Source: Escherichia coli (GTDB lineage Bacteria; Pseudomonadota; Gammaproteobacteria; Enterobacterales; Enterobacteriaceae). Taken from it: a DNA stretch of 64,000 bases. The position numbers are program-made. Shown here piece after piece: positions 36,001 to 42,000 of the stretch; positions within the stretch are counted from its first letter, which is position 1, and each line of letters opens with the position of its first letter. Location: assembly GCF_003334385.1 (NCBI RefSeq), contig NZ_QOWN01000002.1; one strand, 5' to 3'.

Positions 36001-39000
36001 AGCGATCTTAAGGTGTCGTAATAAGAAACCTGCTGGCTGATGATTTTTCGCACATCATGAAATTCCCTACCGGTTAGTCGCGGTTTGGCAATAATCTCTT
36101 TCAGGGTATGCATTTGCTTTTGCCGATAGGCAATAAAACTGCTTACGCTTTCTAACTGGCTATGGCGTAATGAATAGTTCACCAACGACCAGACCGGAGA
36201 GCTTAAATAAATCCGTAACAGGTTGCCGTAATACGACACAATATTTTTCTTACCGTTACGAAAGCCGTCCTGAAAACGCCCCAGAAAAACGGTCGTTTTG
36301 CCGAATAAAAATCCGGCCTGATGCTTCTTTAAATACAGCCGTTGCGCAAAACGCAGGTGCTTGTAGCGCGCTCGCATGTATTTAAATTGTTTGCGCTCAT
36401 CAGCAGTCAGCTCATCGCCTTTGGCTTGTTTGCGAACTAAACGCAGTAACTCCTGACGATCAACGCCATTGAGCCAGAATTGCAGGCATAACGCGTAATT
36501 ATCATGAATGATTTCGGTGGTACAACTTAGTGCAATAGTCGGCGGCAAACTAACCTGTGCATCAACGACATCATCTTCTTCAATCGCAACAAATAGACGC
36601 TCGCTCGCCTCAAGCGGGAAATATTTTCTCATCATCAGGATTTCTCTCCGGCTGCGTTATAAAGCAAGGAATGGCGCTGAAAAAATGCCTTTAAGGTTGG
36701 AATTAACGAGAGCGCCACGTCCAGACATTGCCCACCGAAGTAAGCAAACGCTGCTCCCAGCACACCAAACAGATGACAGAACATGAACAGCAATACGATG
36801 TAGCCGATTGAGGCGATGGTTTGCGCCACGAGAAAAGCGCGCTGTTTTCCCGCCATCAATAGCAATGACTCCTGAGGGAAGCCCAGCATCGAAATCACAA
36901 TTGCGCCCAGCATCACCTGAATCAGGTCATACGCTTCGAGATACTTAACGCCAAACACCAGCGAAATGAGCGGCTTGCCGACGATCAACACCGCGAGCGC
37001 CACCAGAATACCGATTCCGCCCGCCAGTAAACCGGACTTCACACCTAACAACCACGGTCTGGTGGTGCGCGGATCTAAACGCATCACCTCTGGGTAAAAA
37101 CTTTTACCCAGCAAACCCGCTGGCGTTCCGGCGGCGTCGAAGAATGTCATGGCGATTTTAAATAACCCGGCGGCAGCGGGTCCTAACACGATCCCCACCA
37201 ACACTGTGCTGCACGAGTTACGCGCCGACCAGATGGAGTGGGCAATGTTGGTTGACCAGACAAAACTCCACGCGCCTTTAATGTATCGGGCAGACTCAAA
37301 CAGATTCAATTTGAAGGCGTTATGGATATTTCGGCGGCGTAATTCGCGCGCGGCAAACCACCAGTACATGGTGCCGCCAACCAGATTCGACACGTACCAG
37401 GCAATAACAAAACCCGCAAAACCAAAGTCAAAATACCAGGCTACGACGCTCCCCGCTGCGCGCAGAAAAGGTTTCGTCGCCTGCTGTACAGCAATTAAAT
37501 CGAAGCGATCTACCGCACGCAGAATGCCGGTCGGCGTGGAGGAAGCCATTGAAGGAATGAGCGTGCAATAGAGCGCTGCCAGCCAAAAACTTTGGTCATC
37601 CAGACCTAATGAATGGGAAAGGAATGGCAGTAAGGCAATGCCACCGACAATCGCCACCGCGCCGCTGACGATATCCAGCGAGAAGGAAAATGAGACGACA
37701 TTGCGGAATTGCTGCGGATTATTGTTGGTTAATGCTGGTGTTCCGTACTGAACCACCAGTTGCCATGTCTGAAACTTAATAAAATCGCTGATCGACTTGG
37801 CGTACGATTGCACAATCACCAGTACGCCAAACATGGCGGGCGTCATCCCTTTACCGGCACACGAGAGCGCCAACAGACCCAGCAAGGCGCTCACGACATT
37901 ACTGGAGCCTAACCAGGCGCTATTGCGAATAATGGTGCGAAACGCGCCATCTGCAAACCAATGTTTGATGTTAAAACCCGCCAATTCAGCCTGACCTTAT
38001 CGTTGATAGTAAAAAGTATCCCGCCAGCCTTAAGTTAAACTTCGGCGGTCAGAAACGATGGCAACCAGAGAAACCGCCTTCTGTGCCTGTTCCAGCACTT
38101 CGCTGTAGGGCGCTCTGGAATCAATCTCAAGAATTTTTGTGCCGTTATAGCCAATCTTCGACATGACACCGATTTTGTCCTGCAGCTCGGCATAGTCATG
38201 GTCAGGCTTGCGGGAGATGGCAGTCTCAATATCAATGCCCAGGCGAATAATTAATTCCGGGCGATATTGCGCCATTTGTTGGTATAAACGCCGTTCGCGC
38301 TGCGCCAGAAACATGCTGATTTTCCCGGTCGCACGTTCGACGCCAATCCCCGGTCCATCATAATAAAAGCCCGAAATTTCAGCCTGCGGGAAGCGATCGC
38401 TGACCACCAGAACGCCACTTTGCGCCAGTCGCTGAACCTTGCGTAGATTCGCCATTCTTCGCAGCGAGAAGCAGTACATAATCACCGCCGCCCATAGCGC
38501 CGGAGATTTGGTTTTCATGCTTTGGGTTTTCGAGGATTTGGCCGCCAGTCGCCGTTCCAGCCAGACGCCAACCAACGGCAATCGTTTGATTTTGTCGCCG
38601 TCTTCGCCGGAGAGCAGCCCCAGATAGCGCCGCTCGGTTTGCCAGTGTTGTTGCAGCGATTTCACCAGGTCGGTGGTCAGTGTGGATTTACCGGTGCCAT
38701 CACACCCGACCACCGCAATCAGCCCCGGAATGTAGTTGGGCTGCGGCGCGGTTGTACTATTAACAGTTTGAGTTTGTAGTGCATCCATTCGTTAAATCAT
38801 CCCCTATCCATTTTGGTGATCAGGAAAGCGCGGCGTGAATTGCGCGTAGTGACGCTTGCAGAATTTCATCGGCGGGGTGTCGCCCATCCAGTTCAAGGAT
38901 CTTTGCGCCATTGAATGTCAGTTGCGGCGTAACGGCGATTTTTTCCTGTAACGCTGCCAGTTGGTGGTCAGGTTTACGCGCAAACGCGGTTTGTTCATCA

Positions 39001-42000
39001 ATGCCAAGACGAATCAACAATACGGGCAAATAAGATGCCATCCATTGGTACAGCTTCAGCTCGCGCTGCCTTAACATTTTTATCCAACCGTTACCGCCCG
39101 TGGTTTTTGCCAATTGCGGGCCATCAAAGCGAAACCCCGGCACTTCAACCTGCGGGTAGCGGTCGGTGATGAGCAGAAAGCCTTGCTGGCTTTTACACAA
39201 CATTTTGCGAAACTTGTACGCCCGCCAGCAGGAAAGCAGATAGATAACCAGTGCAGTAATATTGCCAGGCGGTGTTGAGGGCTTTTCGTGCACATGTGCC
39301 GCTTTACTTCGCAGATAACGCCCAAAAGGTGCGCCAATAACAGGGAGCTGTGAAATCCATTCGCCAATTCGCCCGGACGATTGCCCGAGATAAATGTGTT
39401 CTGTTGGCATTCTTGCTGCCAGTTCATTTACCAGGCTTGCCGTGAGGGTCGATTTACCTGAACCATCACATCCTACAATGGCAATAACACGCACTGGCGT
39501 GGAATTAATTATTGACATATTACGTTGATTCACGAAAAACCCGGCAGTAAATAATGTATTGAATATTACGTGGTCCGTGCTCAGAATATCCGTTCAACCT
39601 TATTGTGACAATGGTTAATTGTGACATTGACCTGAATTACGCTTTCATAAAAACATATTAACCAAATAAATATTTTTAATGGATATTTAAATTAAAGGAT
39701 ATATTCATGCAGTCAATAACACCTCCATTAATTGCCGTTATTGGTAGCGATGGTTCAGGCAAGTCAACGGTGTGTGAACATCTTATTACCGTTGTCGAAA
39801 AATATGGTGCTGCCGAAAGAGTTCATTTAGGAAAACAGGCCGGAAATGTCGGTCGTGCAGTGACAAAATTACCGTTGATGGGAAAATCCTTACATAAAAC
39901 AATTGAACGAAATCAGGTGAAAACAGCAAAAAAATTGCCTGGACCAGTTCCGGCGCTGGTAATTACAGCGTTTGTCGCCCGTCGCTTACTGCGCTTTCGT
40001 CATATGCTTGCCTGTCGTCGTCGCGGGTTAATTGTTCTAACCGACCGTTATCCTCAGGACCAAATTCCTGGCGCTTACGATGGTACGGTGTTCCCACCTA
40101 ACGTTGAAGGTGGTCGTTTTGTCTCATGGCTGGCAAGCCAGGAACGTAAAGCGTTTCACTGGATGGCGAGCCATAAGCCTGATCTGGTCATCAAACTCAA
40201 TGTTGACCTTGAAGTTGCCTGTGCACGTAAACCCGACCATAAACGGGAATCGCTGGCGAGGAAGATTGCCATAACGCCACAGTTAACCTTTGGTGGTGCA
40301 CAACTGGTTGATATCGATGCCAATCAGCCACTGGAACAGGTGTTGGTTGATGCAGAAAAAGCGATTACGGATTTTATGACCGCGCGTGGTTATCACTAGT
40401 CAAAAATGGAAATGCCCGATCGCCAGGACCGGGCATTTTCAGGAAGGTTAAATCAACTGCAATGCTATCCAGTACAGCCCACCAGAAAGAAAAATTGCCG
40501 CCGGTAAAGTAAATACCCACGCCATCAGGATGCTGGTTACCGTTTTACGCTGTAACCCACCGCCGTCCACCACCATCGTCCCTGCAACTGCAGACGAGAG
40601 GACGTGTGTTGTGGAGACGGGCATCCCAATATAACTGGCAAGACCGATAGACACTGCCGCCGTCATTTGTGCCGCCATGCCTTGCGCATACGTCATGCCG
40701 CGCTTACCAATCTTCTCACCGATGGTCATCGCTACACGACGCCAGCCAATCATGGTGCCAATGCCGAGCGCCAGTGCTACCGCCATGATGATCCACACCG
40801 GAGCGTACTCAATGGTGCTTAACATATCGCTGCGAAGTTTTTTCAGCAGGTTCTGGTCTTCTTTACTGACGCCTGGCAGTTTCGCTAGCTTCGCGGAGGT
40901 ATCAGAGATGCACAGCATAATGCGGCGCAGCTGGCTGCGCTGACTCACGCTTAACGGCTCGTAACTTTCCATATTGCCTGGCAGCATCGTTTTAACGCGC
41001 GCAATAGCATCAAAGGTATTTGCCGGATGACAGTGAAACTCTGTTACTTGCGTGCCATCAGTCGATGCTGCAGGCAATGGAGGTTCCATCGCAATCAACT
41101 TCTGCGGCAGTTCAGGATGCTGTTGCAGGTAGTGTTCGAAGTTGGTAACGGCATCGCGGGTACGGGTAATTTCATAGCCGGACGCATTCATATTGACGAC
41201 GAAGCCAGCAGGGGCAATCCCCACCAGTACCAGCATTACCAGGCCGATCCCTTTTTGTCCGTCGTTCGCGCCGTGCGAAAACGCCACGCCCGCAGCGGAA
41301 ACAATCAGCGCAATACGCGTCCAGAATGGCGGTTTACGTTTGCCTTTTTTCTTTTTGCGATCTTCCGGAATGCGGTGAATACGGTCACGCTTTTTCGTCC
41401 CGCTCCAGTAGCGTCGCAGCAGGAATATCAGGCCTCCCGCAATGACCAGGCCGACGATAGGGGAAACAATCAGCGAGGAGAAAATTTTGGTCACTTCACG
41501 CAGGTTTAACGCATCCATCACCGATGAGCCGGTTAACAGCGCGTTGGTTAAACCGATGCCGATAATCGCACCAATCAAGGTGTGCGAACTGGAGGCCGGT
41601 AAACCGAAGAACCACGTTCCCAGGTTCCAGATAATCGCCGCCAGCAGCATGGAAAAGACCATCGCCAGGCCGTGGGTTGACCCCATATTCAGCAACAAAT
41701 CGGTTGGCAACATATGGACAATGGCATAGGCAACGCTAAGTCCGCCCAATAACACGCCAAAAAAGTTAAAAAATGCCGCCATCACCACAGCAAGTTGTGG
41801 TTGCATGGCACGAGTATAAATAACGGCTGCCACCGCATTCGCCGTGTCATGAAAACCATTGATTGCTTCGTAGAACAACACAAATGCCAGAGCAAGCAAT
41901 AACAAAAGCCCTGTGTATATATCAAGGCCAACAAATAAATTTAGCATATATTAGATTACGCCATTTTGAATTTACGAACGGACGCATTATCAGTGACTTT

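Follow-up and report, generated by a model that had tools for sequence, protein, structure and literature searches.

Which head group does the sphingolipid locus of Escherichia coli give to its lipid, and which of its proteins add it? The synthesis of bacterial sphingolipids has been worked out only recently, and for the E. coli-type locus the head group is the question addressed here. We analysed a stretch of 64,000 nucleotides (the window) from contig NZ_QOWN01000002.1 of the RefSeq assembly GCF_003334385.1, in which the three genes yghR, yghS and yghT lie beside genes for lipid synthesis and export. A preliminary description of this DNA had placed three paralogous kinase-like genes at 38030-40399 and had suggested that they could be lipid or head-group kinases. 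The three open reading frames (ORFs) are present at these positions: yghR (38030-38788, minus strand) codes for 252 aa, yghS (38820-39533, minus strand) for 237 aa, and yghT (39707-40399, plus strand) for 230 aa. On balance we favour the view that YghR, YghS and YghT (together YghRST) are phosphotransferases that act, without redundancy, on the head group of the E. coli-type sphingolipid.

Fold and motifs of the three paralogs

By regular-expression search the Walker A motif was found as GCDGTGKST in YghR, GCDGSGKST in YghS and GSDGSGKST in YghT, all of the form GxDGxGKST, and the DR[FY]PQ motif as DRFPQ in YghR and DRYPQ in both YghS and YghT. The signature of ATP-binding cassette (ABC) proteins, searched as [LFYIV]SGG[QEKRM], was absent from the three proteins. 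In these respects the preliminary description was right. A further motif, RKPDH, is common to all three. In BLASTP comparisons YghR and YghS share 44% identity (E 1e-63), YghS and YghT 36% (E 2e-53), and YghR and YghT 34% (E 6e-48); as judged by sequence this similarity is far above chance and the three proteins are true paralogs. No transmembrane segments are predicted and the proteins look soluble. An identity as ABC ATPases was rejected, as the signature motif is absent and the matches to ABC families span the P-loop alone. A role in anti-phage defence was also discarded, the PADLOC matches being noise at the level of the P-loop.

A profile built from the three paralogs matched 2150 representative proteins. 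A family alignment of 67 sequences (A3) was used for the structure model and for profile searches. The AlphaFold2 (AF2) model of YghS (pLDDT, the predicted local distance difference test score, 91) has the three-layer alpha/beta/alpha fold of nucleoside-monophosphate kinases and is closest to thymidylate kinase (TMPK, dTMP kinase). With Foldseek the top PDB matches of the model were the TMPKs of S. aureus, T. thermophilus and A. aeolicus (E ~1e-6, template-modelling (TM) score 0.5-0.7, 15-19% identity), followed by deoxynucleoside kinases and archaeal adenylate kinases; for the dTMP and deoxynucleoside kinases the TM scores run from 0.53 to 0.66. The A3 profile matched solved dTMP kinases with E-values from 4.6e-13 (P. 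falciparum TMPK) to 1e-8. Because of the Foldseek matches and this profile homology we conclude, from sequence and predicted structure, that YghRST belong to the thymidylate-kinase superfamily as a divergent branch, which also bears out the likeness to nucleotide kinases that had been noticed before. The PPK2 family was rejected as a candidate: no PPK2 model is among the listed NCBIfam matches (for YghS the best 25 of 35), and no PPK2 chain is found among the best 60 PDB profile matches or the top 50 Foldseek matches.

In RefSeq, yghS and yghT carry the product name 'dTMP kinase'. With the dTMP kinase model TIGR00041, YghR scores 32.3, YghS 24.3 and YghT 25.8 bits, compared with a curated cut-off of 83.25, and the Pfam family Thymidylate_kin (PF02223) gives a match to YghS that is not significant (i-E 0.013). 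Apart from such dTMP-kinase matches below threshold, NCBIfam and Pfam gave only matches to P-loops in general. YghRST and the dTMP kinases are alike in fold and topology, in the GxDGxGK[ST]T P-loop with its acidic residue, in the DR[Y/F] after strand 3 and in a lid starting just past strand 4. However, the dTMP-binding segment after strand 2 (FPxR...) is not kept in YghRST: in the profile alignment FPNRETGIG of P. falciparum TMPK stands opposite LGsgsgelg, which is followed by a basic insertion of ~21 residues, and R104, the later helix arginine, is all that is retained. YghRST further differ by an invariant PQ after the DR and by the added DGP, E158 and RKPDH, and they form a trio in a lipid locus, whereas dTMP kinase is encoded by a single housekeeping gene. 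The RefSeq name overstates the relationship and is likely an over-annotation that has been propagated to thousands of genomes; correcting this widespread name is one outcome of the analysis.

Conservation of the trio and its neighbourhood

One genome per species was scanned for related loci, taking up to 10 kb on each side; ORFs were called and searched iteratively with the window proteins. The 78 loci obtained are the best-scoring relatives and are biased to Enterobacterales (~35 loci). Complete 10-kb flanks are available for 49 loci (full-flank loci), 24 of them non-enterobacterial. Clustering of the 210 kinase domains from the 78 loci gave three orthologous groups, R, S and T, with 68, 77 and 65 members, to which YghR, YghS and YghT, respectively, belong. 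All three groups occur together in 51/78 loci, mostly arranged T(-) S(+) R(+), and in most of these 51 loci yghT keeps its divergent position beside S-R.

Walker A, DRxPQ, D137, E158 and RKPDH reach a conservation of at least 90% in each of the three groups (210 orthologs), and the groups are distinguished by group-specific residues within positions 48-75. Because the motifs are kept in every group and each group has residues of its own at 48-75, all three proteins look catalytically competent and non-redundant. The segment equivalent to residues 47-118 of YghS is strongly basic, with a mean net charge over the 210 orthologs of +9.5 in R, +9.3 in S and +14.3 in T, and the proteins are near-neutral outside of it. 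In a metagenomic sphingolipid locus (L087, 5947-7425) an S-type and an R-type kinase are naturally fused to one protein of 492 aa (P0121, seen on 5 contigs); its gene has as neighbours a gene of the Asp/Arg-hydroxylase family, spt, and acyl carrier protein, cerR-type and aasR-type genes. The existence of this fusion suggests that S and R may work together.

The serine palmitoyltransferase gene spt, for which the preliminary description had proposed a check of phylogenetic co-occurrence, does accompany the trio: it is present in 34/49 full-flank loci (69%), as is acpR, and cerR and aasR are found in 33 and 32 of them. Even more frequent are yghQ, coding for a flippase-like protein of the MOP family (41/49; 56/78 overall), and the ORF of 274 aa discussed below (36/49; 50/78 overall), and 47/49 full-flank loci (96%) contain at least one lipid-locus marker. 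For the 24 non-enterobacterial full-flank loci the numbers are 9 for spt (within 10 kb), 17 for yghQ and 12 for the 274-aa ORF; the sphingolipid genes of sphingomonads are known to be scattered. The association spans Enterobacterales, Rhodanobacter/Luteibacter, metagenome-assembled genomes of Beta- and Gammaproteobacteria, Halioglobus, Acetobacter and Sphingomonadales with varying gene order. Hence the link of the three genes to a lipid pathway is a conserved one, and the designation as lipid or head-group kinases is read from this context. Sugars, which had also been named as substrates, are unlikely, since the E. coli locus encodes no glycosyltransferase.

The ORF of 274 aa (35811-36635, minus strand), annotated as 'hypothetical protein', appears to code for a core partner of the kinase trio. 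Its predicted structure is a helical bundle with conserved histidine and basic residues, by which we assign it to the CHAD fold (PF05235), a polyphosphate-binding fold that had gone unrecognised in this protein. The family profile matched no PDB sequence, and the likeness to CHAD comes from structure comparison only. No paper dealing with CHAD and sphingolipids together was found in the literature searched.

The other neighbours of the trio were clustered and representatives annotated, covering part of the neighbour clusters. Among them are several genes whose characterised homologs act on the phosphate groups of membrane lipids. PAP2 phosphatases resembling LpxE, LpxF or SepP were identified with NCBIfam in 17 and 8 of the 78 loci, DgkA homologs in 16/78 (E 4.5e-23 to solved DgkA), homologs of the lipid A 1-phosphate O-methyltransferase LmtA in 15/78 (TIGR04571, 1e-31, below cut-off), and distant lipid kinases of the YegS/LCB5 type in 4/78 (sub-threshold NCBIfam matches). 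At least one PAP2, LmtA-like or DgkA gene is present in 41/78 loci, and a lipid kinase of the DgkA or YegS type lies beside the trio in 20/78. An acyl 2-hydroxylase resembling OlsC/LpxO (NCBIfam) was found in 18/78 loci, often directly after group R.

The LmtA-like membrane methyltransferase, a homolog of LmtA of Leptospira, is encoded in many non-enterobacterial loci, often between the T and S genes (L041, L046, L049, L053, L054, L057, L060); it was also noted in L072, L076, L077 and L080. From homology this hints that a head-group phosphate may be methyl-capped in these loci. In Serratia, Pantoea, Rosenbergiella and relatives, not in Escherichia, a second, locus-specific DgkA adjoins yghO or the R kinase; DgkA genes were found in L011, L013, L015, L016, L018, L019, L023, L027-L029, L031, L033, L034, L048, L065 and L071. 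By its homology the locus-specific DgkA is a candidate ceramide kinase.

Possible roles in building the head group

The assignment of YghRST as head-group phosphotransferases is based on the fold, the motifs that are intact in all groups, the conservation of the trio, and its association with sphingolipid, flippase, CHAD and lipid-phosphate genes; from these we infer the substrate, the order of steps and the product. With their thymidylate-kinase fold YghRST would transfer phosphate from ATP, the three having been exapted together for the branch of the sphingolipid pathway that makes the head group. YghO, AasR, CerR, AcpR and Spt would make ceramide on the cytoplasmic side of the inner membrane, and a lipid kinase would convert it to ceramide phosphate; in many species this kinase would be the DgkA/YegS-type enzyme of the locus and in E. 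coli presumably the housekeeping enzyme DgkA. DgkA phosphorylates ceramide in vitro. The three soluble kinases would then add further phosphoryl groups to the head group. That the trio acts after ceramide phosphate seems the simplest reading, because 20 loci add a recognised lipid kinase. The acceptor would most plausibly be a phosphate, as for the nucleoside-monophosphate kinases and the polyphosphate kinase PPK3, since the dTMP-binding residues are gone and the acceptor segment is strongly basic. As nucleoside-monophosphate kinases phosphorylate a phosphate, a di- or oligophosphate product would be chemically natural.

For the CHAD-fold protein we suggest binding either of the head group, by then rich in phosphate, or of polyphosphate as a donor. 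Once flipped by YghQ, the product would be extracted by LptF2G2 on its way to the outer membrane, and outside E. coli its phosphates may be trimmed by the PAP2 phosphatases or capped by the LmtA-like methyltransferase. According to annotation and NCBIfam matches, genes for glycosyltransferases, nucleotidyltransferases and CDP-alcohol transferases are all absent from the E. coli locus, and none of the Caulobacter head-group genes CpgA-D is present in the E. coli-type locus. Phosphate would thus be the sole head-group material available from the locus's own enzymes. The likely head-group module consists of three kinases of the thymidylate-kinase fold, a CHAD-fold protein and a MOP flippase, to which lipid-phosphate phosphatases, a phosphate methyltransferase and lipid kinases are added elsewhere. 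It is ancient and separate from the CpgA-D route of Caulobacter. The genes had been named already and the fold was known; new with respect to the literature searched are the family, its three-way orthology, the CHAD partner and the tie to the sphingolipid locus.

A precedent for a P-loop kinase that acts on a membrane lipid is LpxK, the lipid A 4'-kinase. This Walker A P-loop kinase phosphorylates its lipid on the cytoplasmic side, and flipping and export by the Lpt system follow. It differs from YghRST in its target, a hydroxyl on a sugar of lipid A, and in the distinctive way its domains are arranged, and it is not among the family or structure matches listed for YghRST.

The CHAD partner and the comparison with PPK3 go beyond what the preliminary description had read from the sequence. 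A direct precedent, published in 2026, is PPK3 of Sulfolobus (Saci_2019/Saci_2020), in which two dTMP-kinase paralogs, encoded in tandem and exapted, make up a polyphosphate kinase. They are annotated as dTMP kinases, have lost the dTMP-binding residues, form a basic cleft and typically have CHAD genes as neighbours (PMC12995831). YghRST resemble it in being adjacent paralogs of the dTMP kinase fold (yghS-yghR in tandem, yghT adjoining) that are mis-annotated as dTMP kinases, in the loss of the dTMP-binding residues, in the positive charge of the acceptor side and in the CHAD-type neighbour. As an analogy this resemblance in kind is striking. Unlike PPK3, YghRST comprise three paralogs instead of two, and their neighbours are genes of lipid synthesis and export, whereas those of PPK3 are PPX, Pst and SixA; among the conserved neighbour families that were annotated (some clusters were left unannotated) none is PPX, Pst or SixA. 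Membership in PPK3 itself was rejected, as the YghRST profile does not lie nearer to ST1543, a homolog of the catalytic PPK3 subunit, than to TMPKs, and as an arginine-less paralog is lacking; the analogy was kept.

Taking the analogy one step further, we tentatively propose, as a possibility of rather low probability, that the trio and the CHAD-fold protein act as a lipid-directed machine similar to PPK3, with ceramide-1-phosphate as the starting point of a phosphoanhydride chain (di-, tri- or oligophosphate). If this were true, such a 'ceramide oligophosphate' would be an anionic outer-membrane lipid with a phosphate-only head group, undescribed in any organism, and the ability to make it would be shared by most E. 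coli strains and by many other proteobacteria. The trio adds to PPK3 another possible example in which thymidylate-kinase paralogs have been exapted for the chemistry of phosphate chains. No paper on ceramide di-, tri- or pyrophosphate was found in the literature searched.

Several points weigh against YghRST as head-group phosphotransferases and against the comparison with PPK3. The link to the pathway is guilt by neighbourhood, and the literature searched held yghR, yghS and yghT in gene lists only, with no paper on their function. The three genes are intact in K-12 despite the deletion of lipid genes described below. The basic segment could simply serve to hold the enzymes at the anionic membrane. 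The assignment of the partner to CHAD is based on a predicted structure and weak Pfam matches. Concerning PPK3, its regulatory paralog is without the DRX arginine, whereas D124 and R125 are at least 90% kept in R, S and T; since every group keeps this arginine, YghRST have no obvious regulatory subunit. Moreover, the A3 profile matched ST1543 (2plr/5h70) with 31.5 bits over the P-loop only, compared with 52.6 bits for P. falciparum TMPK, and in Foldseek the TM scores of the YghS model to ST1543 and to canonical dTMPKs are similar (0.53-0.55). Finally, there is a large family of relatives of ~500 aa (P0162, P0169, P0172, P0185 etc.) in which an NTP_transf_5-like N-domain precedes a kinase domain like that of YghRST. 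Because of these fusions and of the Wzx/Wzy loci in which such relatives occur, the ancestral substrate may have been a glycan precursor or another small molecule and not a lipid.

These relatives lead to the alternative that YghRST phosphorylate a soluble head-group precursor or nucleotide to give an activated donor, which an enzyme encoded elsewhere attaches to ceramide. The C-terminal domain of the fusions is homologous to YghRST (E 1e-30 to 1e-46) and has the same motifs, and the fusion genes adjoin or are fused to MOP flippases. They differ in the nucleotidyltransferase-like N-domain, in an identity of only 25-33% to YghRST and in their neighbours, where genes for glycosyltransferases, Wzy and sulfate activation are found in place of spt. 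The NTP_transf_5 domain was found in 6/14 members at E<=1e-3; further fusions in the ~500-aa family involve MOP flippases (P0220, P0265) and a GT4 glycosyltransferase (P0247), and in L081 (5721-9482) the gene is part of a Wzx/Wzy polysaccharide locus that also has genes for ATP-sulfurylase and sulfotransferase. That the N-domain could be the 274-aa partner ORF was rejected (hhalign probability 2%). The setting of these relatives, with an NTP_transf_5 domain and in Wzx/Wzy loci that have sulfate-activation genes, is typical of small molecules being activated by a kinase and then a nucleotidyltransferase; this setting, the nucleotide-kinase fold and the apparent solubility of YghRST all fit a soluble substrate. 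On the other hand, E. coli-type loci contain neither a nucleotidyltransferase nor a transferase to use the donor, the dTMP-binding residues are replaced, and the homologs of the PAP2, LmtA-like and DgkA neighbours all act on lipid-bound phosphates. We consider a soluble precursor unlikely, although the wider family speaks for it.

Another possibility is that one or more of YghRST are ceramide or sphingoid-base kinases, as counterparts of CpgB, while the others phosphorylate the C3-OH and the acyl 2-OH. CpgB, the ceramide kinase of Caulobacter, has an LCB5 diacylglycerol kinase (DAGK) domain with a GGDG motif (PMC10331486). It resembles YghRST in being encoded in a sphingolipid locus and in starting an anionic, phosphate-containing head group, and its role is likely the functional niche of YghRST. 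Yet its DAGK/LCB5 fold is unrelated to the P-loop fold, no DAGK match is among the family-library matches listed for YghRST, and homology of YghRST to CpgB was thus ruled out. A direct action on ceramide would agree with the lack of a CpgB homolog in the E. coli locus, with the OlsC/LpxO-like hydroxylase, which in 18 loci could supply extra hydroxyls, and with the deoxynucleoside kinases of the same fold, which phosphorylate hydroxyls. Such a kinase would be redundant, however, in the 20/78 loci that already encode a DgkA or YegS/LCB5-type enzyme, the latter in addition to the trio in four of them; E. coli keeps all three kinases without a locus-encoded hydroxylase, and dihydroceramide has only two hydroxyls for three ancient paralogs, each of them conserved in its own right. 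In view of the different fold of CpgB and of these 20 loci, a plain ceramide kinase is less likely, and we regard this possibility as doubtful.

A third alternative, that YghRST are ATPases or regulatory partners which energise or gate YghQ or replace LptB for LptF2G2, is very improbable. Its appeal lies in the lack of an LptB homolog in the locus, in the position of yghR directly upstream of yghQ together with the frequent presence of yghQ, and in the fusions of some relatives to MOP flippases. But the ABC signature, Q-loop and H-loop are all absent, DRx and lid-type motifs, which belong to phosphotransferases, are conserved, LptF2G2 occur in only 31/78 loci, and three distinct regulators for one flippase would be unparsimonious. 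LptF2G2 of Caulobacter, furthermore, bind the housekeeping LptB (preprint 10.64898/2026.04.12.717747).

The last alternative, that YghRST are spare dTMP kinases located beside lipid genes by chance, draws on the RefSeq name and on the best family and fold matches; with TIGR00041 scores far below the cut-off, the Pfam match not significant, the dTMP-binding stretch replaced, spt present in so many of the full-flank loci that the synteny is not due to chance, and a separate essential tmk in E. coli, its probability is close to negligible.

The locus in the window and in other E. coli genomes

The ceramide genes of the window were identified from the RefSeq annotation of an identical locus. They are yghO (27424-28566, minus strand), coding for a cerS-type GNAT protein, and on the plus strand aasR (28976-30664), coding for a fatty acyl-AMP ligase, a cerR-type gene for an NAD-dependent reductase (30661-31575), acpR for an acyl carrier protein (31607-31855) and spt (31855-33027). 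The roles of the BL21 homologs of these five genes have been studied biochemically (PMC9386255). In the window the cerR-type gene is interrupted by an in-frame amber codon (TGG to TAG, W121*, at 31021-31023). The 61-bp stretch around it has a match in 2516 of 5426 complete E. coli genomes, exact in 0, the best with one mismatch, so that the amber codon is either private to the source strain or a sequencing error. If it is real, ceramide synthesis is probably broken in this strain.

As had been described for the export operon, yghS and yghR are co-directional with it and yghT is divergent. In this direction yghS is the first gene. The genes with the same direction as yghS-yghR are yghQ (36635-37984, minus strand; weak NCBIfam match to MOP flippases, Wzx-like) directly downstream of yghR, the CHAD-like ORF, a gene of the YtfJ family (35239-35802, minus strand; TIGR01626, 212 bits, above cut-off), and lptF2 (34138-35208) and lptG2 (33062-34141), both on the minus strand. 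The last two code for paralogs of lipopolysaccharide-export permeases, matched by the pair TIGR04407/TIGR04408 above the cut-offs. LptF2G2 have been proposed as sphingolipid exporters and their role in Caulobacter has been described (preprint 10.64898/2026.04.12.717747). The YtfJ-family protein, whose gene is present in 32/78 loci and in Enterobacterales only, has a signal-like N-terminus and might help to handle the lipid in the periplasm.

The spacer between yghS and yghT (39534-39706, 173 bp) is AT-rich and presumably contains the promoters of both. A scan of the trio region for promoters and terminators gave no more sites than shuffled controls; the spacer itself contains one weak sigma-70-like match on the minus strand, which does not exceed the shuffled control. 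In the K-12 literature yghSR and yghT are given as divergent units (PMC9962212).

In E. coli RefSeq genomes the trio is annotated as yghR/yghS/yghT between yghQ and pitB. The 3.5-kb stretch around it is matched in 5083 of the 5426 complete genomes, and in 4033 of the 5426 the 17-kb locus as a whole has a coverage of 80% or more. In K-12 MG1655 (L001, 10291-12485, corresponding to ~28900-37984 of the window) an IS5 insertion and a deletion have removed aasR, cerR, acpR, spt, lptG2, lptF2, the ytfJ-like gene, the CHAD-like ORF and the C-terminal end of yghQ. As this deletion took the lipid genes and left yghRST, the trio is orphaned in K-12.

Directly after yghT lies pitB (40448-41947, minus strand), the gene of a low-affinity phosphate transporter. 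This arrangement was seen in 10 loci only, from Escherichia, Citrobacter, Hafnia and Pseudocitrobacter (L003-L010, L017, L025), and the adjacency is probably coincidental, though worth noting given the phosphate theme of the locus.

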